From contig NC_009664.2 of NCBI RefSeq assembly GCF_000017305.1, positions 4,729,184 to 4,761,183 on the forward strand: a DNA stretch of 32,000 nucleotides. Reading direction: 5' to 3'. The notes below the pieces were generated by a model. That model ran no database searches. It was not told the origin of the DNA and worked only from the letters and a program-made list of their open reading frames with translations. A program made the position numbers and the translations under genes. Shown here piece after piece: positions 2,982-15,440 of this stretch. The DNA is from Kineococcus radiotolerans SRS30216 = ATCC BAA-149 (lineage in GTDB: Bacteria; Actinomycetota; Actinomycetes; Actinomycetales; Kineococcaceae). The stretch's first letter is position 1, and every line of letters starts with the position of its first letter.

Positions 2982-3950
2982 TCAACGGCGGCCCCTGCTC
3001 AGCTTGTGCTGCGTCTCAGGCGCACCCCGCCGGAGCCCATCCTGTTGGCCTCGTCGCTGCTGAATCTTTAACCGCTGGTGCTGCTCGCGGCGCTCACAGA
3101 AGGTCGCCAGGTGCTCGGCGGCCTTGGCCGCGGTGTCCAGCGGCAGGGCCTGGTCAGGACTCGTCGGGCCGGCCATGACCGGTCGCCAGGTGTCGCTGTC
3201 ACGGAAAGCGACGATGAGGACGCCGTCGCGGTCGACGACCTGGCTGTGGAGGTTGGGGGCGCCGGGTCCGGCGAGGACGAGGACGGGCCGGACGGGCGTG
3301 TGGATGCCGTGGCTGCGCAGCAGGGCTGCGGTCTTGGTGGCGCCTTGGCGGGCTTGGCGGAGCTTGGACTCCAAGCCGTAGGTGTCTTCCAGGCTCTGCT
3401 GGCGGCTGAAGAGGGCTTTGACTTCGAGGGCGAAGCAGCCTTTGGGGGCCAGGACGACGTGGTCGACGTCGAAGTGCTCGAAGGGGATCGCGCTGATGAC
3501 GCCGTACACGCCGTCGGTGGTGCGCAGCTCGTCCCCGACGTCGCCCTCGACGCCGCGGCCGAGCCGGGCCAGGAGGCTGCCGTCGGCCAGGGCAAGGAAG
3601 CCGGCCCAGCCGACGGCGGCGGCGCCGAGGAAGACGCCGAGGATGCCGGCCTGCAGCTGCGGGTGCTCCCGGGCGCCGTAGCTGAAGGAGACAGCCGCGA
3701 GAGCGAAGGCGGCGAGGAGCTTGGTGAGGTCACGCCAGTTAGCGCGCAGCAGGTGCCGGCGGCGTGCGCGGAGGTCCTGCTCGAGCCAGGAGGCGCGTCG
3801 GCGTCGGTAGCGAGGGTAGGGCAGGCGCAGCTGGCCGTATCCGCGGCGATCACGCAGCCATCTCACCAGCGCAGCATCGACGTGGTGCGGGCTGTGCTTG
3901 AGGTCTACACCCTCACCCGCGTCGGTCTCTCGTCCCCGCTGGTCTTTCAC
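2982..3950 (-). CDS. membrane-anchored NERD (nuclease-related domain) protein
   Basis: 322-aa ORF with GTG start. Two hydrophobic helices (LLAAFALAAVSFSY and ILGVFLGAAAVGWAGFLAL) are followed by a NERD-like core: GVEGDVGDELRTTDGVYGVISAIPFEHFDVDHVVLAPKGCFALEVKALFS...RPVLVLAG. It is transcribed divergently from the SIR2-like gene across a 95-bp gap. Confidence 0.75.
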   Translation of the reverse strand: MKDQRGRETDAGEGVDLKHSPHHVDAALVRWLRDRRGYGQLRLPYPRYRRRRASWLEQDLRARRRHLLRANWRDLTKLLAAFALAAVSFSYGAREHPQLQAGILGVFLGAAAVGWAGFLALADGSLLARLGRGVEGDVGDELRTTDGVYGVISAIPFEHFDVDHVVLAPKGCFALEVKALFSRQQSLEDTYGLESKLRQARQGATKTAALLRSHGIHTPVRPVLVLAGPGAPNLHSQVVDRDGVLIVAFRDSDTWRPVMAGPTSPDQALPLDTAAKAAEHLATFCERREQHQRLKIQQRRGQQDGLRRGAPETQHKLSRGRR

Positions 3951-4045: not shown

Positions 4046-5845
4046 ATGAGACGCGTGGATGCTCATGTCTCCCTGGCCTTGGCCTTGCAGTCCGGCCCCG
4101 GCACGGTCGCTGCCTTGCTCGGGGCCGGTGCGTCGGCGTCGGCGGGGCTGCCCACGGCGTGGGAGGTGCGGCAGGAGCTGATCCGCCGGGCCGCGCTCGC
4201 TGCCGGTGAGGCGGTGCCGACCGACCCCGAAGCATGGTGGTCTGATCGCGGTGGCAGCGCAGGCTACGACGGGCTGCTGGCGGAGCTGGCGCCCACGCCG
4301 GCGGGGCGGCGCGACTTGCTGCGGGGCTTCTTCGAGCCCACCGAGGACGGGCGCGAACGGGGGGAGAAGCGTCCCGGTGCGGTGCACCACGCGCTGGCCC
4401 AGCTGGTGGTCACTGGCGCGGTGCGGGTGGTACTGACGTTGAACTTCGACCGCCTCATCGAGACCGCGCTGCGCGAGGCGGGTATCGAGCCGGTCGTCAT
4501 CGACTCTCCGGCCGCGGTGGAGGGGATGGAACCGCTGCAGCACCAGCGAGCGGTGGTGGTGCACCTGCACGGTGACTACCTCTCACCCGCGACGCTGAAC
4601 ACCCCCGAGGAGCTCAATACCTACCCGGCTGCGCTCAACGCCTTGATCGATGAGGTCTTCGACCGTTATGGCCTGCTCGTCATCGGCTGGTCAGCGACGT
4701 GGGACAACGCCCTCCGAGCGCGCCTGCAGGCCGCCCGCAGCCCCCGCTACGGCACCTGGTGGATCGACCAGTTCCCCCTAAGCGGGCACGCCCAGGACCT
4801 GGCCAGCGCCCGTCGGGCCGCGGTGGCTATCGCAGATGCGGGGGTAGAGCTGGCGCGGGTGGTCGACGCGCTGCAGGCGCTCGCGGAACAGCGCCTGCAG
4901 GATCCCGTGGGGCCGCCCGCGGCTGTGGCCTTCGCCAAGCGAGCCCTGGCCGGGGCGAATGTGGCCATTGGTTTGCATGACACCCTCAGCCGGGAGACCG
5001 ACCGGGTAGCGAACCTCGACGCTGTCCGCTCAAATGAGTTCAACGTGGGCGGTAATCAGCTGGCGGCCGTGTACGCCCGTCGTCGGGATCAGATTCTCGC
5101 CGGCACCGCCACGTTAAGCGCGCTGGTGGCTACCAGCGCTTACTGGGGAAATGAGCGCACCGATGCTTGGTGGTTACCCACCATCACCCGCTCGGTGCCA
5201 CGCGAGATCGTCGGTGGACTCACGCCGTTGATCGGCCTGCGTTTGGGAGTGGCGACGCTGCTGACCCACGCCGCCGGCATCGCTGCCACCGCCGTCCGTC
5301 GCGACGAGCTGGTTGCCCACTTGGCCGCCGGTAACCGCCTCACGTGGAATGACCAAATCCTAGAGGCGGCTGCGGTGCTGACCCCGGCGGTGTTGTGGGC
5401 AGAAGACGGCGCCGACGCCGAACTGCGCCTGCGAGAGTACTTGCGGCCGCTGCTGCAGAACCACCTCGCCCTCGGCGCCGCCGGGTATGAGCACGCGTGG
5501 GAGGACTGGGCCGCAGTGTGTTACCTCACCCGGCGGCAGGCGGGCACCACTGTGGCTGCTCCCCTCATGGTCATCGACGGCAACGAACCGTACGCGCCGG
5601 CCTTGAAGCGACTCAAAGGGCGAATCAAGGATTTACCGGAGAACACGGGCCTGTTCGCTCATGGCAATCTTGGCGGCAGGATCGGGCTGGCGTGGCCGCT
5701 CCTCGAACGCTACGAGAGTCAGGTCGCCGAGTGGGCCAAGGAGCTCGACCGGAACCACATTACTCCCTTTGGTGCCGGCATCGGAGGAGGCGTCATTCCT
5801 ACAGGGCCGCGTTACCCCGGTCGTCCTGATTTGGCGTGGCGCTGA
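4046..5845 (+). CDS. SIR2-like (SIR2_2 family) domain protein with an uncharacterised C-terminal helical domain of about 340 aa
   Basis: 599-aa ORF. N-terminal motifs: LLGAGASASAGLPTAWE (GAGxS...P.W), VVLTLNFDRLIE (Asn133, codon 4442-4444), VVVHLHGDY (His175, codon 4568-4570) and LLVIGWS. This order and spacing are typical of SIR2_2 NADase-type domains. No motif was recognised after about residue 250. Confidence 0.85.
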   Translation: MRRVDAHVSLALALQSGPGTVAALLGAGASASAGLPTAWEVRQELIRRAALAAGEAVPTDPEAWWSDRGGSAGYDGLLAELAPTPAGRRDLLRGFFEPTEDGRERGEKRPGAVHHALAQLVVTGAVRVVLTLNFDRLIETALREAGIEPVVIDSPAAVEGMEPLQHQRAVVVHLHGDYLSPATLNTPEELNTYPAALNALIDEVFDRYGLLVIGWSATWDNALRARLQAARSPRYGTWWIDQFPLSGHAQDLASARRAAVAIADAGVELARVVDALQALAEQRLQDPVGPPAAVAFAKRALAGANVAIGLHDTLSRETDRVANLDAVRSNEFNVGGNQLAAVYARRRDQILAGTATLSALVATSAYWGNERTDAWWLPTITRSVPREIVGGLTPLIGLRLGVATLLTHAAGIAATAVRRDELVAHLAAGNRLTWNDQILEAAAVLTPAVLWAEDGADAELRLREYLRPLLQNHLALGAAGYEHAWEDWAAVCYLTRRQAGTTVAAPLMVIDGNEPYAPALKRLKGRIKDLPENTGLFAHGNLGGRIGLAWPLLERYESQVAEWAKELDRNHITPFGAGIGGGVIPTGPRYPGRPDLAWR

Positions 5846-5981
5846 CGGCAGCAGGATCCGACCAGCCTGTGGAAATCAGCAGTGACTGACGCGGTGACTA
5901 GGGCCCAGATGCTGCGCCTGTAGTCGTCCTGATGCTCAACGCTTTGGTCTGCGGTGCACCTCGCACGACGTCGGACTCTGC

Positions 5982-8900
5982 TTACTGCTCCAGCTCCTTC
6001 TGGACAAGGATCGCCACTGACGACCCGCGTCGAGCGAGGTTGTCGACCAGTTGCAGTAGAGCCCGACGCAGCGATCCAGGTTCGTGCTCCTCCCGCACCA
6101 CATCTCGCAACCAGGTCTCGACGTATTGACTACGCCCCAGAATCCGAGACCCGTCGGGCCCAATCATCCTCAGGACGAGGCCCATTGCCTGGGGCGTACG
6201 TTCCAGCGCGTTGGCGGCCAGGCAGAGCAGCAGCCGGTCGACGAGGTCGGGGGACGGTTCGGACGCCGTCACCCAGCGATCGATCACGCGGGCGTACTCA
6301 TCTGGCGGCCAGGAGGCTCCGGACTGCGGTATCGGTAGTAGCGCTTCGTCCAGTTTACGTCTCGATGCTTCTTGTCGGGACCGGCGTGATGCTTCCCGTG
6401 CAGACCGCGCCGCGGGCAGCAGCTGATCAAGCAGTCTGGGCCAGACCTCGAACGACCGTTGTCCCTGCGTGGTCGACACGGCCTGGAGCGCGAGTGACTC
6501 AACGACAAAAGCCAGCTCCTCGGGGGCAGGGGTGAACGCCGTGAGATAGCGGTCGAGGATGTCGTCATTGCCGTCGAGCACCGCGGAGGAGACCCAGAGA
6601 CTGATCTGCTGACACCAGTAACGCGATCCGCGAAACCCGCGGGGGATCGCATCGGTGGGTCTACGCCTTAGGTCATACTCGACAAGCGCGGCCAGCGTTC
6701 GTCGAGCGCCCTCGCCGTGCGGGCAGTCACAACGTGCCGCCGCCCTTAGCCCGGGTAGCGCGTCCGCGGCGGTGTCGTAGTTCAACAGGGTGTCGGGATC
6801 GGTAAGCGCCTCCTCAAGAGGTTGCCTCAAACGCTTGCGGGGACGTTCTTGACCGTTCCACGGACCAACTCCTGCAGCCAGGATCCACTCAAGGTAGACG
6901 GCCATGGCGGTGGTGTGTCGTGCGTGAGTCCTCTGCTTCGTGCAGTCGGTGTCGTTCCACGCTGCGGCCAGCCCTTGCAGGAGGCGGTCTCTGACCTGGC
7001 GGGACTGACTGGCCGACAGCATCTCTACTATGGAGGTGAACTGATCCTTATCTTTGCCGCATGCATCCAGGAGGAGGTCGTCGCTGAGCAGGCGGGTGAT
7101 CGCGGTCGCGAGTGACCGGTCGGCGCCGAAGTCCCAACTCATGTCGCGGTCAGCGTCCGCGAATTTGGGCGTGTTCTCGTTCACGAGGCGGAGAAGTGTT
7201 TCCACGGCGGTGGGCAGCATCTGTAGTTCTGCCTCGCCGCCACGGGCCGCCTGCACTACGACGGCGGCCGCAGCCATCGCCAAGGTCTCGGCAGGGTTGA
7301 AGGCGATGCCGAGCTCGGAGTCGCTGCCCTCGTCGCGCACCATGGTCCCAACGGTGGTGTACAGCTGCGCTGCCGAGCCGGGCTGGTCTACTGATTCGTC
7401 GCGGATCTTCATGGCGGCGAACAGGTGGTTGGACAGCTCGAGACGGGTGCGGGCCTCACGGCCGCCGCCTTCTTCCAGTTGCTGTTGAAGATCAGAGGGC
7501 AACTCGACTGAAACCTCCAGCTGGTTCGGCTGGTTCTCGACCGGGTTGAGCCGGTAGTACTCGATCCGAAACATGGACGCGCGCCGCCGAGCGACGGCCA
7601 GCTCCGGGGAGCCCTCAGCGGGTTCACCTTGGCGAGCACGGGAGTTTGTCAAGAACCGTTCACCGGTCGCTTCGAGTTCACGGCGACGTTCCTCGTCGCC
7701 ACCTAGTACGAGCTGTATGACGACACCGTCGACCTGGGTGCTCAGCCCGGGCTCGCCGGTGTCCCACCCTGCACCACCACCGAAGATTCGGGACGTTTCC
7801 ATGTCCCAGACGTCCGGCTCTTGGAGGAAGGGGTCTAGCAGTGCACCGGAAGTCGATGGGTTAATGAGCAGGAGGGAGTACCCCACGGCTGCCAGTGCCG
7901 GACTCACACCTGCGAGCAGGACATCGTCCAGGATTTGTTCTAGAGGCCGCTTGCTCACCTGTGCAACTGCCCATCGGCGCAGCGCCATTAGAGCCGACAT
8001 GGCCGGGTAGGGCCCGGTACCAGCCCGCTGGTACCACCCCCAGGCAGAAGCGGGACCGCGATAGGTGCGGGCGTTCGACCAGTGCGGGAAGGTGAGTTCG
8101 AGAGCCAGTGGACGCTGCGGCCTGGAGAACGAAGCTTCTTCGCGTCCTCGGTGCCGGGTGGCGGCATCGACGACGGCACCCACCAGCCTCAGACCGTGGG
8201 CAGGTGAGTGGTCCAACAGGACAGCGAAGGGCCCCCAGTCGGGCCCAGTCAAACCGAAACCGCGGCGGCGTGCGGTGCGGTGCGAGTGGTCGCGGATACC
8301 GTCCTCGTCGCCTGGAACGCCCAGCCGTCGGCGGCCTCGCAGGGTGCGGCGCGGGGTCATCGGGAGCCGGCCTCGTGCACCATCCATGTCCAGCGGCCAG
8401 TCGAGGTAGTAGCAGCCAGCCAGTTCCAAGAGCAGATCGGGGTTGTCTCGGGCCAACGCGGCTGCAACGTCCGGATCTTCGATGATTGCTTCGAGGTCGT
8501 CGCCGCGTTCGACAGCTCGCTCGAGAAGCGGGCTGGCTTCGGCGGGGAGGTTCTGGCCGAGCAAGCCGAGGACGGCAAGGGCGGACTCGTAACGCTGCCC
8601 ATACGTGGCATCCCCAGCCCAGCTGACCGTCGCGGCGCACAACCGCGATGAGTCGATGCCGAAGTCGCCCGGCCGCAGGCGGTGGAGTTCCAGACTGCGG
8701 AGCCATCGTTCCGTCAGCAACACGGCGGACGCTGCCAACCCTTCCGACAACTCCGCGGCGGTAGCGATCAGCAGTCCGATCACCGGGGCAGCCAGCACGC
8801 TGTTGAGAACGAGACTGGCACCATCGAGCGTCATGCGGTCGGGCGTCGTACGGTCGGTCGTCGCGAAACGAGTCGTCACCGCGATGAGCCGCGCGACATC

Positions 8901-10988
8901 CAAAAGACGCGGTTGTCCGGCGGTGTTGGGGACCAGCTCCTGTAGGTCGAGCCGCTGCAGACCGAGCCCCTGCAGGACAACCCCGGGGTCAGCCAAAGAC
9001 AAAGCCGACTCGTACGGGACGTCACTCCAGCGGTCGCCGTCGCGGGCCGCGAGCCGTTCACAGACTGACAGTTGCTGCTTCCAGACAGCGCGCAGCTCTG
9101 CCGGGTCGCTCGCTGCGGACAGGGTGCGTTGTCCGGCCAAGCGGACTGCTCGCAACAGCGGACGAGGGGAGTGAACCTGTTCCAAAAGCGCCGGATCGTC
9201 GGCCAGGACCATGGCTGCTGCGTAGTCGGCCAGGACGTCGTGGGAAAACCGGTACGTCCGGCCGTGGCGCGTCAGGACGTCGTCGCTGACGAGGCCGCCC
9301 ACTGCGGGGCCAGGAACCGTTGACAGGGATGTGCTGCCCGTGCCGGTGATGACGGCTTCCGCCGCCTCCTCCCAGGCGCGGCTTCGCTCATGGGGTAATC
9401 CCTGCCCTGGACGCATCCCCTCGGAGCGTCGGACGACCGTGTTGTAGAAGAGGTCGAGGATGGTTTCCTCACCGATCGGGTCCTGCTCGGGCAGGGCACT
9501 GCCTGACCGGACGATGAGATCGACGAGGTACGGCCGGCGCAGGAGCTGATTACTGCGAGGGTGACGCAGAAGAGGCGCCAGGAGAGGGAAGGCCTGCTCC
9601 ACCTCGTTCATCTCGTCATCGGTGAGGTCGCCCACCGGCACGTGTGAAGTCAATCGATCACCGAGATGATGGGTCAGAGGGTCGGCAGCTTCTCGGCGGC
9701 AGGTGATGACGACGGTCCATGGCGGACTCTTCCGTCCGCCCGTGGGTGCCGCGTCCAGCAGGAACTCCAGCAGCCGTCCTGCGTCGGCCAGGGCGTTCTC
9801 GGCCCCGTCAATGAGCAGGATGCGAGACCCCGCGGTGGGTGCGGCTGCCAGCGCTGTGGGCAGGTGGGGGATACCCAGCTCGTCCTGAAGGCTGGTGGGA
9901 CTGTCGCCGCCTCGCACAGCAAGATTGATGGCCACCACCGTCGCGTTCTCGCCCTGCTCTTGCACACAGCGACGAGCCAGGACCGATTTACCCACACCGG
10001 CGCTTCCTGAGATCAGCACCAGCCCACCGCCCGCAACAGCCCGGTCGATCTGATCGACAACGCGTGCGCGTTCCAGGCGCAGGGTCCCGCCGATCTGGTC
10101 GACGGTGCGTGCCAGCTCATCCGCCGACGCGGTGAGGACACGCTCGAGCTCGTGCCTGTGCTGGGGAGCGGTGTCCAGGGCGACACCTGCGGCCAGGAGG
10201 GCGGCCCGGAGCATGGGCACGTTGATGACGCCCGCGTTCGGTCCCCAGCCTTCAGCCAGCGTACGCAGCTGCGCGAAGAGCGAGCGCACCGACGGCGCCG
10301 CGGAGGGGAAGACCTGCGCGAGGCGGCTCAAAGTGTCAAGGAAGTCGCGCCCGTCCTCACCGATCTCCATGATCCACACGTGCAGATGACGCAGAAGGTC
10401 GTGGACGAGCCGGTCCACCCCCAGCTCGTCGACCTCTAGGCCCTGTCCGGTGCTTTCCTGGTCGCCTCGTTCGGCTAGGACCCGCTCGACGGCGGCCTTG
10501 ACGTGGTCGTACCGACCACGGACCTCGGCGCTCATCGCTCCCGGCATGAGCAGCCCGAGGAAGGTGTCAACGCTGGTATGAGCCCGGGCGATGACGGTCA
10601 ACCGGTGCAGCTCTTCCAGCTGGGCCCTCGGGCCGCCGGCGGCGAGGCCTAGACGGAGGCTGCCTGCGTCCAGCTCGTCGTGTCGGGTGGACAGCTCCTG
10701 CAGACACTGTCCCAAGACGTCGAGGAACGCGCGGTCTGAGGGGGTGGGAGCCGCCCGGCGCTTGACCTGGTAGTCGATGCTCGATGGCGATGCGCCCTGA
10801 TTGGAGGTCAGGACCAGGTCGTCCAGAGCGTGGCCTGCTACGCGCCGCTGTAGGGCGATGCTGGTGGGGGCTGTGTCCAGCCCTGGCATCAAGTCCCCGG
10901 TCAGCAACCGTCCCAGCGCGAGTGCGGCGAGGGTGTACTCCTCGATCGTGCCCGCCCCGCCGGTTGCCTCAGGCGACACCTGTGCCAC
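5982..10988 (-). CDS. giant NACHT/STAND-like P-loop NTPase with an N-terminal Cap4/DUF4297-like (PD-(D/E)xK-type) module and a helical C-terminal region of about 1200 aa
   Basis: The uninterrupted ORF spans 5982..11231 (1749 aa). Walker A GSAGVGKS lies at 9984-10007. Walker B ILLIDGAE lies at 9798-9821, followed by VVITCR (NACHT-like hhhTSR). N-terminal segment (10752-10961): GGAGTIEEYTLAALALGRLL...IALQRRVAGHALDDLVL...IDYQVKRR. I prefer the GTG start at 10986-10988 (VAQVSPEATGG...). Codons between 10989 and 11110 are rich in A/T-ending and AGA/AGG codons. Further upstream, the open frame shares third-codon positions with the opposite-strand ORF (a shadow). Alternative starts are ATG 11078, 11111 and 11231. 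The stop is TAA. Confidence 0.85.
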   Translation of the reverse strand: MAQVSPEATGGAGTIEEYTLAALALGRLLTGDLMPGLDTAPTSIALQRRVAGHALDDLVLTSNQGASPSSIDYQVKRRAAPTPSDRAFLDVLGQCLQELSTRHDELDAGSLRLGLAAGGPRAQLEELHRLTVIARAHTSVDTFLGLLMPGAMSAEVRGRYDHVKAAVERVLAERGDQESTGQGLEVDELGVDRLVHDLLRHLHVWIMEIGEDGRDFLDTLSRLAQVFPSAAPSVRSLFAQLRTLAEGWGPNAGVINVPMLRAALLAAGVALDTAPQHRHELERVLTASADELARTVDQIGGTLRLERARVVDQIDRAVAGGGLVLISGSAGVGKSVLARRCVQEQGENATVVAINLAVRGGDSPTSLQDELGIPHLPTALAAAPTAGSRILLIDGAENALADAGRLLEFLLDAAPTGGRKSPPWTVVITCRREAADPLTHHLGDRLTSHVPVGDLTDDEMNEVEQAFPLLAPLLRHPRSNQLLRRPYLVDLIVRSGSALPEQDPIGEETILDLFYNTVVRRSEGMRPGQGLPHERSRAWEEAAEAVITGTGSTSLSTVPGPAVGGLVSDDVLTRHGRTYRFSHDVLADYAAAMVLADDPALLEQVHSPRPLLRAVRLAGQRTLSAASDPAELRAVWKQQLSVCERLAARDGDRWSDVPYESALSLADPGVVLQGLGLQRLDLQELVPNTAGQPRLLDVARLIAVTTRFATTDRTTPDRMTLDGASLVLNSVLAAPVIGLLIATAAELSEGLAASAVLLTERWLRSLELHRLRPGDFGIDSSRLCAATVSWAGDATYGQRYESALAVLGLLGQNLPAEASPLLERAVERGDDLEAIIEDPDVAAALARDNPDLLLELAGCYYLDWPLDMDGARGRLPMTPRRTLRGRRRLGVPGDEDGIRDHSHRTARRRGFGLTGPDWGPFAVLLDHSPAHGLRLVGAVVDAATRHRGREEASFSRPQRPLALELTFPHWSNARTYRGPASAWGWYQRAGTGPYPAMSALMALRRWAVAQVSKRPLEQILDDVLLAGVSPALAAVGYSLLLINPSTSGALLDPFLQEPDVWDMETSRIFGGGAGWDTGEPGLSTQVDGVVIQLVLGGDEERRRELEATGERFLTNSRARQGEPAEGSPELAVARRRASMFRIEYYRLNPVENQPNQLEVSVELPSDLQQQLEEGGGREARTRLELSNHLFAAMKIRDESVDQPGSAAQLYTTVGTMVRDEGSDSELGIAFNPAETLAMAAAAVVVQAARGGEAELQMLPTAVETLLRLVNENTPKFADADRDMSWDFGADRSLATAITRLLSDDLLLDACGKDKDQFTSIVEMLSASQSRQVRDRLLQGLAAAWNDTDCTKQRTHARHTTAMAVYLEWILAAGVGPWNGQERPRKRLRQPLEEALTDPDTLLNYDTAADALPGLRAAARCDCPHGEGARRTLAALVEYDLRRRPTDAIPRGFRGSRYWCQQISLWVSSAVLDGNDDILDRYLTAFTPAPEELAFVVESLALQAVSTTQGQRSFEVWPRLLDQLLPAARSAREASRRSRQEASRRKLDEALLPIPQSGASWPPDEYARVIDRWVTASEPSPDLVDRLLLCLAANALERTPQAMGLVLRMIGPDGSRILGRSQYVETWLRDVVREEHEPGSLRRALLQLVDNLARRGSSVAILVQKELEQ

Positions 10989-11145
10989 ACCCACTCGCCC
11001 CCCGTGAACGACCACATGACCTGCTCTGATCGGCGACCCGTCCGATGGGGCGGGCCGCCAAGCCCTACGACAGATCATCTTGCCCGAGGGGCTCCGTCTT
11101 GACGCCCTCATCCCAGATACGTCCACGATCGACGCGGTTGTCTCG

Positions 11146-12060
11146 ATGAGCGCGCCCAACGGCACGAGCAGGCCGCCGTGTGGGCGGTGGGGGACCGCTA
11201 CGCCGCGGCGCGCGGCATCGCGGACGGGCATCCCGCTGGGTCAGCTGATCCTGGTCGGGCACCACAGCGAGGGCCGGGCCCGGCGAGACGCGGCCCGGAT
11301 GGGCGCGCACATGGATGCCAGCGTGGCCCACACCGACGCAGCCGAGGAGGCGCGGCGGGCGGCGCGGATCGCGAAGGCGGCCACCGATGCCCGCTACAAC
11401 CCGGTGACGGTGGCGAAGCGAGTGGAGCGGTTGACCCCCAGGGTGGGGGCCGAGGAGAAGGCGCTCGCGCACTGCGAGCGCGCGGTCGCTGCCGGGCAGG
11501 CCGCTGCTGCGGCCCTGAGCGCGGTTGGCGGCCCGGACTCAGACCTGGATCGGGGGCAGGTGCAGCCCGACCGTCCTCGGGCTGGGGAGAGCGCGCAGGG
11601 GGCCGCGGTGCGGTATGGGCTGAACATGGCCGCCCACGCGGCCGCAGTCGCTGAGCGGTTGCAGGCGCACCGTGCCGACCTGGCCCACTGGCAGGCGGTG
11701 CGTGCCCGGCAGGTCGCGGATGGGACGGCCACCGGCGTCGGCCGGCACAACGTGGCGGCCGGGGATCAGGTGCGGGTGCGTGGGCACTGCTACGAGGTGG
11801 TGCGGGCGAACGCGAAGACGGTGACGGTGCTCGGCATGTTCGGGCCCCGCGCGACCCTGTGGCAGGAGGTCCAGGAGCACCGGCGGGGAGCAGGCGGGAC
11901 CGGTGACCAGGCGAGGGCGGGGGGGGTGACTCAACCCCTGTTCACGGCCCGTCAACCTCCGGCCGCGTCGGGGCCGGGCGTCCCGGCCGCGCAGTCGTGG
12001 CCCTGTGACGATCCAAATTTCTTCGGTACCTCCCGCGCCTGCGCATCTGCGGGACCCTGA
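11146..12060 (+). CDS. DUF3560-like protein (mobile-element/plasmid-associated family), apparently lacking the usual N-terminal part
   Basis: Matches my recollection of DUF3560 proteins: GQLILVGHHSEGRARRDAARM...ARYNPVTVAKRVERL...WQAVRARQVADGTATGVGRHNVAAGDQVRVRGHCYEVVRANAKTVTVLG. ATG 11146 is chosen. The track ORF begins at 11080, but that stretch is antisense-shadowed by the giant ORF. The start is uncertain. Confidence 0.55.
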   Translation: MSAPNGTSRPPCGRWGTATPRRAASRTGIPLGQLILVGHHSEGRARRDAARMGAHMDASVAHTDAAEEARRAARIAKAATDARYNPVTVAKRVERLTPRVGAEEKALAHCERAVAAGQAAAAALSAVGGPDSDLDRGQVQPDRPRAGESAQGAAVRYGLNMAAHAAAVAERLQAHRADLAHWQAVRARQVADGTATGVGRHNVAAGDQVRVRGHCYEVVRANAKTVTVLGMFGPRATLWQEVQEHRRGAGGTGDQARAGGVTQPLFTARQPPAASGPGVPAAQSWPCDDPNFFGTSRACASAGP

Positions 12061-12094
12061 GACAAACGGGCGGGCCGCGTGGAATTGTGACCGA

Positions 12095-12679
12095 GTGCAA
12101 CAGCTCATCACTGCGCCCTTCTTCCGGCGACTGGCCGCCCGGCTCATCGACCTCGGCTTCGCCCTGGTCCTGACCTTCGCCCTGGCCGTGGTCGTGGGCC
12201 TGATCTCAGGTCTCGTGACCGCCTTCAGCGGTGGCCTCGACGAGGATGGACTGGCGATCGCGCTGCTGGTCTGGCTCTGCTACTTCCTGGCCTACGTCGC
12301 GCTGGAGTGGTTTCTGGTGGTCAACCGCGGCGGGCAGACGCTGGGCAAGGGGCTGATGGGCATCAGGGTGGTCCGTGCATCGGGCACCGGCGTCGCCCCC
12401 GCTTCGTCCTTCGTTCGCCTTTTCGTGTTCTTCATCCCGTTCTTCTTCGCCTCGCAGGCTGGGGGGTCGACGTCGGCCGGGTGGGAGGCGCTGGCCACTA
12501 TCGGGTTCTTGTGGTCCACAGCCACACTGATCATGGTGTGCATCCGGCCAGGCGGTCGGCGTGGGGTTCACGACTACTTGTCGGGCACTCGGGTCGTGCT
12601 CGCTCCGAGGCGCAAAGTGAACCTGCGGAAGGACATTCCGATGATGGTGCCTAGGCGGGTTGACCTCACCAAGCGCTGA
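12095..12679 (+). CDS. RDD family membrane protein
   Basis: RRLAARLIDLGFALVLTFALAVVVGL..., then LEWFLVVNRGGQTLGKGLMGIRVV and RRGVHDYLSGTRVV, with 3-4 hydrophobic helices. The track ORF starts at GTG 12005, but codons 12005-12094 are A/T3-rich (CAA ATT TCT GTA CCT). In-frame GTG 12095 is therefore preferred. The start is uncertain. Confidence 0.75.
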   Translation: MQQLITAPFFRRLAARLIDLGFALVLTFALAVVVGLISGLVTAFSGGLDEDGLAIALLVWLCYFLAYVALEWFLVVNRGGQTLGKGLMGIRVVRASGTGVAPASSFVRLFVFFIPFFFASQAGGSTSAGWEALATIGFLWSTATLIMVCIRPGGRRGVHDYLSGTRVVLAPRRKVNLRKDIPMMVPRRVDLTKR

Positions 12680-13171
12680 CCGCGAAGTGTCACCATTCCC
12701 TCGACCAGTAGCGCCGTGGCTTGGTCGTCGTGCGGACGGTGGCGCCGCGGCTGGGATTGCAGGTGGTGAGGAGGAGCTGGTCGGCTTGGGTTCCGCCATG
12801 TGCTCGGGCGAGGGTGTGGTCGGCCTTAAGGGGCATGTGGTCGACCTTGAGGGCAACGTCGCGGAACATCTGCGGTCCCTGACCGACGGGAGGCTGTCGG
12901 ACGCGCGTTCAGATGCCATCGGTCACGGGGCGGTCGGGTCGACGTGTTCGACGACGGCGCCCAGGAGGACGCCGACAGCCTGGACGAGGGGGTCCAGGGC
13001 ATTCGCGGCGTCGGTGGGGTGACGGTGCCGCTCAGGACGCCCAGGAGGAAGAAGGGCCCGGCGGCCGCGACGGGTACCGCGAGGACGGCGACGACGCGCA
13101 GCAGGGCGGCGAGTGAGACCTGCCGAGCGGGCTGTGTCGGGTTGTGTCGGGCTTCGTTGTAGTGATGCGGG

Positions 13172-13531
13172 TCAGGCGGCGTGGGCTTCGCGGTCGTAGA
13201 CGAGGGTGGCGGCTTGGTAGAGGGGGGCGAGGTCGAGGTCGCAGGTGTGGCAGAGGTGGTGCAGGTCGCTGAGCAGTTCGATGAGGGCTTGCTGCATGTC
13301 CTCGGCGTGGCTGCCGCTGGCGCGGGTGTGGTGGTGGAGGGCTTGGGCGGCGTAAGCGGCGCGATGGGCGTTGGTGTGGCGGGCTCGGGCGGCGCGGGTG
13401 GCGGGGTCTTCACCGTCGGGTGCGGCGCTGCTGAGGGCGGTGACGCTGGCGCTGGCGTGAGCGTTGGTGCCGGCGCGGGTGCTGGCGCTGGTGTCGGCGC
13501 TCGCGGGTTGGTGGGTGGGGGTCTGGGTCAT
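13172..13531 (-). CDS. hypothetical small protein (Ala/Thr/His-rich N-terminus, helical C-terminus)
   Basis: Internal ATG at 13529-13531 (MTQTPTHQPASAD...) is preceded by AAGGAC. The C-terminal AEDMQQALIELLSDLHHLCHTCDLDLAPLYQAATLVYDRE resembles small helical proteins found in actinobacterial phage/ICE regions. No family was assigned. Confidence 0.45.
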   Translation of the reverse strand: MTQTPTHQPASADTSASTRAGTNAHASASVTALSSAAPDGEDPATRAARARHTNAHRAAYAAQALHHHTRASGSHAEDMQQALIELLSDLHHLCHTCDLDLAPLYQAATLVYDREAHAA

Positions 13532-13782
13532 GGCGGGTCCTTGAGTGGGTAGTCCGGGGGTGGGAGCCCAGGGGTGGAGTGCAGTGAGGGTGCTACGGGG
13601 AGGTGCTGGCGGCCCTGCTGCCCTTGTGAGCCACGGCTGGGGAGCCGGGCCCATGAGCCGTATCTGCGGGGTTGGTGCTCTGCTGCCCGTGGCGGATCTG
13701 GTGAGGCGGCCTGTGGGGCGGCGGGGAAGTGGTGCTGCTCGCCAGAGCGGGTGCTCGAGCCGGGCTGTGCTGGGCCGGTCTG

Positions 13783-14340
13783 TCAGCTGGCGGGGTGCTG
13801 GGTGGGATGGGTGACGATGAGGGTGAGGTGGGGATCGCTACTGCGGGGTCCTTGGACGGCAGCGTCAGCGGTGGCGGTGGCCTCACGGATGGGCGCGGGC
13901 ACCAGGTGCAGCCCTTGCTGCGGCTTGGACTGCGGCTCCTGGTGCTGGTGCTGGTGCTGCTGGGCTGGGGGGCGGGCGAGGCCGGCGAGGTGACCGCTGC
14001 CGGCGGGTGATCCGGTCCCGGACGGGGGGAGGGGCTCGCTGATGAGTCTGATCACCGGCGCGGAAGGCTGGGCGGTGGTGGAGGCGCTGCGGTGGGCGGC
14101 CTGCAGATGAGCGGCGCGTAGCTGGATGTCCTGCTGCGCGGCGTCGAGATGGGTAGCCGAGCCGGTGGCGGAGCTTGTGGCGTAGCCGGCGAGGTAGCCG
14201 AAGAGCGCGGCCGCGGGGACGGCGGCCAGGAGCAGGAGGGCGCGTTCGCTGGCCTTGGCCGGGGCGAGCAGGGGAATGAGGGTGAGGGTGGCGAAGGAGG
14301 TCAGGCCGACGGTGGTGGCTCGACGTGTGTTGATGTGCAT
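13783..14340 (-). CDS. hypothetical membrane protein
   Basis: ATG at 14338-14340 (MHINTRRATTVGLTSFATLTLIPLLAPA...) with two hydrophobic helices, then a Gln/His/Pro-rich tail. The upstream part of the 266-aa track ORF is Pro/Thr/Arg-rich and unlikely to be coding. Confidence 0.4.
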   Translation of the reverse strand: MHINTRRATTVGLTSFATLTLIPLLAPAKASERALLLLAAVPAAALFGYLAGYATSSATGSATHLDAAQQDIQLRAAHLQAAHRSASTTAQPSAPVIRLISEPLPPSGTGSPAGSGHLAGLARPPAQQHQHQHQEPQSKPQQGLHLVPAPIREATATADAAVQGPRSSDPHLTLIVTHPTQHPAS

Positions 14341-14601
14341 GGTGATGCGGGGCACGTCGACGCTCCTGCCTGCTTCAGATGCCAGCTGACCCGTGTCTTT
14401 CAGTCCCGGTGAGCACTTCATTGGGCTGATGGGCTCTCGCGTTTCACTCTGGGCTGAGCCTGCCACACCGGTGCGCTGATGGCACGGGGTGTGGGGCGTG
14501 GAGAGCGTCGGGGTTGGGCCCCCCCCGGTACGTAAGGACATCCGTCGCGACATCGGCGAAGGCGCCGGCGTTGATCGGGCCATTGATCACGCCATCAGCG
14601 A

Positions 14602-15177
14602 TCACGTCGACCAGGGATCGCGTCCACCAGCTGTCGTGTCGATCACTGCGTCGCTGGCCCGCGGCCGGCTGATCTCGTCGCCGGTCTCGTCGCTGGCCGC
14701 TTGCCACCGTCCGGTGAGCTCCTCGCACGCTCGTGGACCCTTCCCGGTCGGCGCTGGCGGGCGGGGAGGTCGCGTCGGTGGGGCCTGCCGCCTGGGGCTG
14801 AGCTCCGCGGGGGTCAGTTGGGCGGCTTGGTAGGCGCGTAGGAGGGTGGGGCTGATGCGGCCGGTGGCGGTGACGCGGTGGCCGTGGGTGCGGGCCCAGG
14901 AGCGGATGATGCGGTGGTCAGGGGCCAGTGTGGTGCGCTTGCAGTTGTCGCGGTGCCCGATGGTCTGGGCTCCGGTGCGGCGGGCGTGTTGGATGAACAC
15001 GTCGAGGCTGGCGCGCAACTGGCGGGCGTGGTCGGCGTTGAGGTCGATCTCGTGAGCGTCGCCGTCGAGGGTGAAGGTGAGGCGTTCGGTGGCGGGGCTG
15101 CCGTCGATGTTGTCGCTCAGTTGGGTGGTGGTGCGGGTGGCCGTGGGGCATGGTGACAGACGCCCGGGCGCGGCCAT
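14602..15177 (-). CDS. lsr2: Lsr2-family nucleoid-associated protein (xenogeneic-silencer type) with N- and C-terminal extensions
   Basis: Dimerisation-domain match: LSDNIDGSPATERLTFTLDGDAHEIDLNADHARQLRASLDVFIQHARRTG. DNA-binding-domain match: DHRIIRSWARTHGHRVTATGRISPTLLRAYQAA. Both align residue by residue with mycobacterial Lsr2 as I remember it. Start is ATG 15175-15177 or 15184-15186. The ORF continues about 77 codons past the point where Lsr2 normally ends. Confidence 0.8.
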   Translation of the reverse strand: MAAPGRLSPCPTATRTTTQLSDNIDGSPATERLTFTLDGDAHEIDLNADHARQLRASLDVFIQHARRTGAQTIGHRDNCKRTTLAPDHRIIRSWARTHGHRVTATGRISPTLLRAYQAAQLTPAELSPRRQAPPTRPPRPPAPTGKGPRACEELTGRWQAASDETGDEISRPRASDAVIDTTAGGRDPWST

Positions 15178-15440
15178 GGGCCTCATTCAGGCCGAGAGCA
15201 ACCGCAACCTCAAATCACCGGCGGCCAATTACCCGGATTGAGTGACAATGAGCAGGAAGCGTCTGGTTCGTATCAGGTTGATACTGCTTCTTTCTCCGCT
15301 GGATGCTGATGCTTACTAGTGGAGGAGGGGGTGGTGGAGAACGGGTTCGCGTCGAGGGTTCGCGGGAAAGGGCGGTACCGGTTCGTTCCGCCGCGGGCCT
15401 CAGGTTCGGTGTTCACGGTGAGGACCTGACGTGTGCGGCC

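Follow-up and report, generated by a model that had tools for sequence, protein, structure and literature searches.

The window analysed here is a stretch of 32,000 nucleotides from Kineococcus radiotolerans SRS30216 = ATCC BAA-149 (contig NC_009664.2, positions 4,729,184 to 4,761,183). It carries on its minus strand a large gene for a STAND protein, which very probably belongs, as a deeply divergent member, to the Avs4 lineage of antiviral STAND receptors. The protein combines an N-terminal effector domain, a STAND NTPase and a C-terminal helical sensor in one polypeptide. Taken as a whole, it is probable that the gene encodes a single-protein antiphage pattern-recognition receptor, situated on a horizontally acquired island, in which phage portal protein would trigger a nuclease. 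The kind of system is known, since the same combination of effector, NTPase and sensor is already called Avs4 in hundreds of gammaproteobacterial genomes. What is new is an actinobacterial clade that escapes the standard hidden Markov models, the recognition of its seemingly unnameable tail as an Avs4 sensor, and a large family of effector domains, described here, whose active site covaries and for which Pfam has no model.

The gene and its limits

The gene was delimited from the list of open reading frames (ORFs), its translation, and a public gene call of identical sequence (P0001), which has 1,677 residues and starts with the GTG at 11015. Residues are numbered throughout according to this 1,677-residue protein, which is divided as follows.

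5982–11015, minus strand: complete gene of the Avs4-like STAND protein, 1,677 amino acids plus stop
10626–10976, minus strand: N-terminal effector core (residues 14–130), arranged as alpha1-beta1-beta2-beta3-alpha2-beta4, as in PD-(D/E)xK folds, in an AlphaFold2 model
10026–10625, minus strand: helical subdomain (residues 131–330), with helices modelled over residues 130–328 and with R168 and D224 conserved
9066–10025, minus strand: STAND NTPase module (residues 331–650) with nucleotide-binding, helical and winged-helix domains, placed by Foldseek, NCBIfam and Pfam
5985–9065, minus strand: C-terminal all-helical sensor of Avs4 type (residues 651–1677), placed by an AlphaFold2 model, Foldseek and hhalign

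The ATG-to-stop ORF on the minus strand, 5982–11231, gives 1,749 residues on translation. It is too long at the 5' end, because it would overlap the divergent DUF3560 gene at 11146–12060 (plus strand), and the real gene is 5982–11015. In the alignment of relatives, the homologues start 5–13 residues ahead of a conserved SPEATGG, so that the in-frame GTG codons at 10994 and 10988 are also possible starts. A preliminary description of this DNA was therefore partly right about the limits of the gene: the 1,749-residue ORF to which it referred is over-extended, but its end coordinate of 10988 coincides with one of these possible starts and is nearly correct.

The motifs quoted in that description all translate exactly on the minus strand, namely GSAGVGKS at 9984–10007, ILLIDGAE at 9798–9821 and VVITCR at 9696–9713. 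The same is true of the N-terminal string GGAGTIEEYTLAALALGRLL...IALQRRVAGHALDDLVL...IDYQVKRR, which can be read further as GGAGTIEEY...ALQRR...LDDLVL...YQVKRR. These matches are not due to chance, because the ORF has 51 homologues in a protein search (E <= 1e-3) and the motif residues are close to invariant: G337, G342, K343, D403 and R440 are invariant or nearly so among 19–36 aligned relatives, as are E26, Q56, D65 and D66.

A predicted Avs4-type sensor and full-length homology to Avs4

The preliminary description could assign the C-terminal ~1,200 residues to no family that it could name. This holds for sequence profiles, but not for the fold. An AlphaFold2 model of residues 641–1677, built on the family alignment (predicted local distance difference test, pLDDT, 86.6; predicted template-modelling score, pTM, 0.81), was compared with known structures by Foldseek. 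The predicted sensor matches chain 8DGF_A, which is E. coli Avs4 with the PhiV-1 portal, at E 1.1e-12 and with a query-normalised template-modelling (TM) score of 0.62 over 1,164 columns. The other matches are importins, mTOR and generic solenoids at TM 0.1–0.3. Since 8DGF alone matches the model well, the tail of ~1,000 residues is read as an Avs4-type helical sensor, on the basis of its predicted structure. The comparison with Avs3 and Avs4 structures that the preliminary description had proposed thus came out in favour of Avs4, as 8DGF is the best match of this model and also of the model of residues 1–720 described below.

Independent of the models, accepted Avs4 proteins are reached through a bridge protein from Aliivibrio fischeri, P0050, which matches the STAND protein at E 5.9e-5. 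From residue 281 to its C-terminus, P0050 matches the Avs4 models of both PADLOC (1.4e-172) and NCBIfam (646 bits, 9.5e-194). Two profiles were then compared: A1, made from the family of the STAND protein, and A5, made from 20 members of a gammaproteobacterial clade of ~1,700 residues. Against the sequences of the PDB, the sole match of A5 is EcAvs4 (8DGF; 1.2e-126, positions 278–1696 with chain residues 188–1586). In hhalign, A1 and A5 align with a probability of 100% and E 1e-42 over 1,539 columns, 1–1655 with 5–1700. Homology thus extends over the full length, the N-terminal domain included. Indeed, the A5 consensus, NPFSTGGGGVNFETR...LKFQNK...TDDFVLV...YAQIKHE, has the same signature as SPEATGGAGTIEEY...IALQRR...LDDLVL...YQVKRR of the STAND protein.

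P0050 itself (locus L019, WOBN01000010.1) is cargo of a type I-F CRISPR-associated Tn7-like transposon. It is placed between the TniQ-Csy2-Csy3-Csy4 genes and the TnsA-TnsB-like-TniB genes, and a gene for an AAA_15/AAA_21 ATPase adjoins it.

The NTPase module

The middle of the protein carries the hallmarks of a STAND NTPase, namely Walker A, Walker B, a sensor-1 arginine and a winged-helix histidine.

9984–10007, minus strand: Walker A GSAGVGKS (G337–S344); G337, G342 and K343 are invariant in 36 sequences
9798–9821, minus strand: Walker B ILLIDGAE (I399–E406); in 36 sequences D403 is invariant and G404, A405 and E406 are nearly so
9696–9713, minus strand: sensor-1 strand VVITCR (V435–R440); R440 is invariant in a 19-sequence alignment, and a strand is modelled at 434–440
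9237–9248, minus strand: FSHD motif (F590–D593) in the winged-helix domain; F590 and D593 are invariant and H592 nearly so

The FSHD motif is presumably the counterpart of the conserved STAND histidine ('MHD'), a role that we take from general knowledge of these ATPases. An AlphaFold2 model of residues 1–720, again built on the family alignment (mean pLDDT 88.7, pTM 0.87), gave Avs4 (8DGF, 1.6e-12) as the top Foldseek match, followed by Avs3 (8DGC, 4e-10). The NACHT modules of NLRP3, NLRC4, NLRP9 and NOD2, SAMD9 and CED-4 came later. The claim of a STAND NTPase within a tripartite effector-NTPase-sensor layout is thereby borne out. The assignment to an Avs/bNACHT-like sensor stands as far as an antiviral STAND protein is concerned, but its generic form gives way to the Avs4 lineage, to which the sensor fold and the profile homology narrow it.

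Sequence profiles see less of this module. Pfam AAA_16 matches it at 1.5e-5, and the NCBIfam Avs4 model matches the region equivalent to residues 306–599 at E ~1e-6. Pfam NACHT (PF05729) stays below its threshold, with 13.1 bits over the P-loop only and a gathering cutoff of 26.7; a few of the relatives bear precomputed PF05729 matches. When the model of residues 1–720 was compared with viral structures (Foldseek, BFVD), only AAA+/STAND ATPases were found, which is uninformative for the N-terminal domain.

The N-terminal effector domain

In the model, the N-terminal core consists of a helix at residues 21–39, strands at 50–55, 67–73 and 76–85, a helix at 95–110 and a strand at 120–126. The conserved residues of its pocket are as follows.

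10950–10964, minus strand: Gly-rich loop TGGAG (T18–G22) directly before helix alpha1; G19, G20 and G22 are essentially invariant in 200 sequences
10938–10940, minus strand: helix alpha1 residue Glu26, whose carboxylate is a candidate for metal binding; E in all of 188 sequences aligned
10848–10850, minus strand: Gln56, where beta1 ends; Q in all but one of 196 aligned sequences (195)
10818–10823, minus strand: Asp65-Asp66, where beta2 begins, corresponding to the 'PD' Asp and modelled just ahead of strand 67–73; D,D in 197 of 197 sequences
10761–10769, minus strand: Gln83-Val84-Lys85 at the end of beta3, the '(D/E)xK' position, in the QxK form

In an antiparallel hairpin, beta2 begins next to where beta3 ends. 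Read from the modelled secondary structure, D65/D66 would thus stand at the classical 'PD' position and Q83/K85 at that of '(D/E)xK'. A D...Q-x-K motif on the beta2-beta3 hairpin, as in DUF4297, is present, with D65-D66 before strand 67–73 and Q83-V84-K85 ending strand 76–85.

The loop T-G-G-x-G, E26, Q56 and D65-D66 are essentially invariant across the 200 aligned sequences. Residues 83 and 85 vary as a pair without exception: Q/K occurs in 83 sequences, E/K in 2, S/K in 3, G/R in 56 and A/R in 52, while mixed Q/R or G/K combinations are absent from the 200 sequences (the P0068–P0211 family). Residues 27 and 146 shift together with them, giving either Y27/Q83/K85/H146 or [HR]27/[GA]83/R85/Q146, and both forms of the pocket are found in the length class of ~1,650 residues. 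The invariance of E26, Q56, D65 and D66, together with the covariation of Q83/K85 with further pocket residues, is the pattern expected of a selected active site. It had been suggested that the module lacks a catalytic acid, with a Gln in place of the usual Glu before the DD motif, and that it might be a degenerate nuclease. This does not agree with the conservation of the residue: judged from the alignments, Gln56 is a hallmark of the family rather than a decayed residue, and the Avs4 relatives from Gammaproteobacteria share this Gln (consensus LKFQNK). Besides, the domain retains three carboxylates that are invariant, E26, D65 and D66.

The domain family is large. When 1.84 billion cluster representatives were searched exhaustively with its profile, 3,412 proteins matched at E <= 1e-3, of which 638 reached E <= 1e-30; this corresponds to at least 3,400 clusters at 50% identity. 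The domain is also fused to NB-ARC+TPR, EAD1+NACHT, NPHP3_N-type NTPase and TPR+PIN proteins; having so many unlike partners, it behaves like a portable effector module. The helical subdomain accompanies the core in different STAND architectures. Within this subdomain, residues 186–290 (about 10146–10460) match the TPRs of kinesin light chain, which are the only matches when the domain profile is compared with PDB sequences (best E 6.8e-5). The match was rejected as evidence of homology to the catalytic core and is read as a likeness of helical hairpins or of composition; it points to hairpins of TPR-like helices separating the nuclease-like core from the NTPase.

Searches for relatives of known function were negative. 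Pfam Cap4/DUF4297 (PF14130) was not matched at E <= 10 by 20 N-terminal domains, 7 full-length relatives or the N-terminus of P0050, in searches where the filters of HMMER conceal most matches above E ~0.1. No Pfam model of any kind, NACHT-associated restriction-endonuclease families included, matched the domain in ~30 sequences scanned, and no nuclease family was found when the 20 N-terminal domains were scanned with PADLOC. The domain profile found no Cap4, Avs3 or DUF4297 chain in the PDB, and the alignment of the 720-residue model with 8DGC_B (762 columns) is dominated by the NTPase. The profile check proposed in the preliminary description therefore gave no Cap4/DUF4297 match. Of the Cap4/DUF4297 layout claimed there, the PD-(D/E)xK topology and the D...QxK motif stand, whereas a Pfam or PDB match to Cap4, DUF4297 or Avs3 does not. 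The layout can reasonably be kept as a likeness, but the Pfam and PDB profile searches do not show the domain to belong to DUF4297. In active DUF4297 the inactivating catalytic mutant is D40A/Q53A/K55A (PMC11291478), and in the Cap4-type LmuA of Lamassu the catalytic lysine is K57 (PMC12663957).

Proposed mechanism and its alternatives

The mechanism proposed here is modelled on E. coli Avs4, Salmonella Avs3 and Avs7, the activation cycle of Avs7 and the tetramerisation of LmuA. At rest, the helical sensor of ~1,030 residues and the ADP-bound NTPase would keep the N-terminal domain inactive. Upon infection, a conserved phage structural protein would bind the sensor; given that the sensor has the Avs4 fold, this protein would most likely be portal, a choice that we make tentatively. 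The NTPase would then swap ADP for ATP and oligomerise, probably into a tetramer. Oligomerisation may pair the N-terminal PD-(D/E)xK-type domains into an active nuclease, with E26, Q56, D65/D66, Q83 and K85 as the candidate site, and degradation of DNA by this nuclease would abort the infection. Activation by induced oligomerisation has been documented for Avs3, Avs7 and LmuA (for LmuA, PMC12663957).

Several observations weigh against this interpretation. Direct profile scores to Avs4 are tiny and concern the NTPase only: 26.4 bits (E 9.5e-7) for NCBIfam NF041815, with a cutoff of 1,500, and 15.1 bits (E 6e-4) for PADLOC Avs4. The protein falls so far below the NF041815 cutoff that it is no 'equivalog' by the NCBI definition, and whole-protein scans with Pfam, NCBIfam and PADLOC yield nothing beyond weak matches at the level of the P-loop. 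Because the direct scores are weak, membership of Avs4 rests on the transitive profile-profile link and on predicted structure, and the evidence for the actinobacterial clade is computational throughout. Identity is ~17% to gammaproteobacterial Avs4 and ~12% to 8DGF, so the specificity for the ligand may have changed. The N-terminal domain matches no nuclease profile and no solved nuclease sequence. Finally, over half of the domain family members listed have [GA]-x-R in place of Q-x-K, which a nuclease that depends on Lys would seldom show, so that more than one chemistry is conceivable for the family.

The most serious alternative keeps the same Avs4-derived logic, but has the sensor recognise a phage protein other than portal, or another cue of infection. 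The low identity of the sensor is compatible with this, as is a 2026 survey of Avs proteins, according to which STAND sensors have diversified to many phage proteins and portal sensing arose independently in Avs11. Against this, the overall fold of the sensor matches that of portal-bound Avs4 and no other structure nearly as well (TM 0.62 versus 0.1–0.3 elsewhere), and the portal fold is generally known to be conserved across tailed phages. A change of ligand is thus rather unlikely, though it deserves to be kept in mind.

The remaining doubts about the preferred portal-triggered nuclease concern the effector, which is itself likely to be a nuclease. Less likely than a change of ligand, but conceivable, is that the N-terminal domain represents an effector family for which public profile libraries have no model yet, with two covarying forms of the active site and perhaps a chemistry that is neither that of Cap4 nor that of restriction endonucleases. 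If this were true, with the Arg form active, the domain would be an immune effector enzyme of a new sort and not just another nuclease. Slightly less probable again is that it is no DNA nuclease, and that it either acts on other substrates (nucleotides or RNA, with TGGxG binding phosphate) or is a non-catalytic module for oligomerisation or adaptor function. The lack of a nuclease match fits such a role, and so do the invariant Gly-rich loop, the Arg at position 85 in 108 of 200 family sequences with Gly or Ala at 83 in those same sequences, and one relative in which an EAD1 adaptor directly follows the N-terminal domain. Moreover, Pfam holds NACHT-associated families of inactive restriction endonucleases, one of which gave a weak match in a Pfam scan. 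Catalysis is argued for by the invariance of E26, Q56, D65 and D66 in ~200 sequences from two phyla, by the Q-x-K form, which this protein shares with active DUF4297, by the canonical E-x-K in two family members and by the PD-(D/E)xK topology of the model.

Neighbouring genes and the SIR2 protein

The gene is flanked by NERD-domain and SIR2 genes on one side and by DUF3560, RDD and Lsr2 genes on the other; the remainder of the window contains genes of ordinary metabolism.

2982–3950, minus strand: gene for a NERD (nuclease-related) domain protein, 322 amino acids, adjoining the SIR2 gene, with no PADLOC match
4046–5845, plus strand: gene for a SIR2_2 protein, 599 amino acids; PADLOC PDC-S65, 1.7e-141
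11146–12679, plus strand: DUF3560 (11146–12060) and RDD-family genes, divergent from the STAND gene, with start codons ~130 bp apart
14602–15186, minus strand: gene for Lsr2, a xenogeneic silencer, ~3.5 kb upstream of the STAND gene

The GC content of the window is ~70% overall, and falls to 0.635–0.65 at window positions 5000–8000 (5–8 kb), across the SIR2 and STAND genes, versus 0.70–0.72 in the flanks. The low GC content and the nearby Lsr2 gene would both suit an island that was gained by horizontal transfer and may be silenced. DUF3560 genes are frequent on actinobacterial mobile elements.

The adjoining SIR2 gene had been put forward as an attractive alternative effector. In such a two-gene system the SIR2 protein, by depleting NAD+, would be the real effector of the STAND sensor. 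The proximity of the genes (136 bp between stop codons) speaks for this, and SIR2 is generally known as an effector in Avs5, Thoeris and defence-associated sirtuin systems. However, the two genes are convergent, tail to tail, and are therefore not co-transcribed, and the SIR2 protein aligns from one end to the other with PDC-S65, a stand-alone candidate of PADLOC (residues 3–559 with 15–585 of 592). At 14 other homologue loci there is no SIR2 homologue within 10 kb of the gene, nor a NERD gene or other common neighbour. When the SIR2, NERD, DUF3560, RDD and glyoxalase proteins were searched by tblastn, they were found only in two assemblies identical to the window and were absent from all other homologue loci. 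The STAND protein, furthermore, has a conserved effector domain of its own. The suggestion is therefore abandoned as very improbable. In the preferred reading, the SIR2 and STAND genes reside in the same defence island independently of each other, and the NERD gene may be a third defence gene there. A further match of the SIR2 protein is to the SIR2 domain found in SIR2 proteins associated with short pAgo (1e-23), although no Argonaute gene is nearby; its C-terminal ~350 residues match no family.

Distribution of the family

The majority of the 51 relatives are 1,600–1,750 residues long and come from Actinobacteria, including Sphaerisporangium, Kitasatospora, Kineosporia, Actinoplanes, Couchioplanes, Saccharothrix, Lentzea, Amycolatopsis, Micromonospora and Rhodococcus; remote relatives occur in Aliivibrio. 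A scan with one genome per species found the family in 13 of 185,579 species. Its neighbours vary by locus. They include integrases, Prim-Pol, Fic and PIN proteins at some loci, AbiJ, endonuclease VII and a resolvase at others, and elsewhere an ImmA-like peptidase, MazG_C and an integrase, or Abi_C, TIR, GmrSD, a Type ISP restriction enzyme and IS110. No partner gene is conserved among the 14 loci when the flanking ORFs are compared all-against-all, and the gene is thus a stand-alone gene in a context of defence and mobile elements, like avs4. Syntenic housekeeping orthologues, which would have spoken for a cellular function, were looked for and none were seen; the family is patchy and sits in mobile or defence contexts. 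A housekeeping or regulatory role of the MalT/AfsR type might be supposed, given that Actinobacteria are generally known to have many large regulatory STAND ATPases and that public annotation calls the family merely 'ATP-binding protein' or 'hypothetical protein', but its probability is negligible in view of this rare, non-syntenic distribution, the full-length homology to Avs4 and a Pfam scan of the protein that found no DNA-binding domain.

Some loci have particularities of their own. In Kineosporia sp. R_H_3 (locus L008, 9980–14944), a stop after residue 244 splits the homologue into ORFs 9980–10714 and 10715–14944, which is either a pseudogene or an assembly error. There, and in Actinoplanes couchii (L010), a gene for a Ser/Thr-kinase-like protein of 511 residues lies directly upstream; this arrangement is limited to two to three of the 14 loci.

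In Saccharothrix, Lentzea and Actinosynnema, a second large gene (1,572 amino acids) directly follows the Avs4-like gene, and its products are 84–88% identical between genera.

Locus L003, 11910–16628: second large gene
Locus L011, 15051–19754: second large gene
Locus L012, 15055–19752: second large gene

With a P-loop GEHGRGKS at residue 417 and an N-terminus of the form E37...D43-D44...Q58-A-K60, this protein looks like a second STAND receptor in tandem. Pfam finds nothing in it, and PF14130 is found in none of 8 homologues. As a route from the effector domain to DUF4297 by way of its E...DD...QAK pattern, it was tried and dropped, as hhalign to the domain gave a probability of 35%.

Significance

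If the reading given here is right, the Avs4 receptor lineage extends to Actinobacteria in a form that standard defence annotation has overlooked. Since the Avs4 models of PADLOC and NCBIfam give the protein 15–26 bits, annotation of such genomes understates their STAND immunity; a survey of actinobacterial defence systems mentions neither AVAST nor STAND. A large orphan gene gains a concrete hypothesis, namely activation by the portal protein of an actinophage. The effector domain, which has no Pfam model, is present in thousands of STAND proteins, and its covarying active site makes it well suited to biochemistry. Lastly, a tempting link between two adjacent defence genes, SIR2 and STAND, is removed.

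Comparison with known systems

Among the PADLOC candidates, PDC-M54A (a profile of 1,621 positions) is of similar length and weakly matches the helical part of the N-terminal module together with the start of the NTPase. The match (1.7e-9, 33.8 bits) covers ~200 residues, 275–475 of the 1,749-residue ORF, and a weak match to residues 202–299 recurs in 15 of 20 family N-termini. It is a partial, low-scoring match, unlike the full-length one expected of a true member. No PDC-M54 partner gene was seen in the window, where 10 neighbours were scanned and none matched a PADLOC model, and a literature search found no papers on PDC-M54 or PDC-S65.

The NACHT-type NLRs and bNACHT proteins have in common with the present protein the STAND fold, Walker A, a Walker B of the DGxE type, the sensor-1 arginine and the winged-helix histidine, and the target-normalised Foldseek TM against the NLRP3 NACHT domain is 0.48–0.53. 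In contrast to them, Avs4 and Avs3 match it better than any NACHT protein does.

Proteins of the Cap4/DUF4297 group (Cap4 of CBASS, the N-termini of SeAvs3 and SeAvs7, HerA-DUF4297 and LmuA) likewise carry an N-terminal effector on an oligomerising immune ATPase. They share a PD-(D/E)xK-type core, predicted in the present protein, followed by a helical extension, with D66/Q83/K85 here in place of D40/Q53/K55 of DUF4297 and K57 of LmuA. The present domain differs in having an invariant Gln where Glu is expected, an additional invariant Glu on alpha1 and the invariant TGGxG.

E. coli Avs4 (8DGF), which senses the phage portal, is also a single polypeptide of ~1,600–1,700 residues with an N-terminal effector, a STAND NTPase and a helical sensor of ~1,000 residues, encoded by a single gene in a defence or mobile-element setting. 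The N-terminal domains of the two show no detectable sequence similarity, since matches to the EcAvs4 chain begin only at residue 188. The N-terminus of EcAvs4 is said to have been described as an Mrr-like nuclease by Gao and co-workers in 2022. The present protein, from an actinobacterial host, instead has an N-terminal domain of ~320 residues with the signature TGGxG-E-Q-DD-QxK.

The gammaproteobacterial Avs4 clade (P0050 of Aliivibrio fischeri, with members in Vibrio, Acinetobacter and Pseudomonas) belongs to another phylum and is recognised by the PADLOC and NCBIfam Avs4 profiles, whereas the present protein is not. Nevertheless, the two share the whole architecture, the N-terminal domain included.

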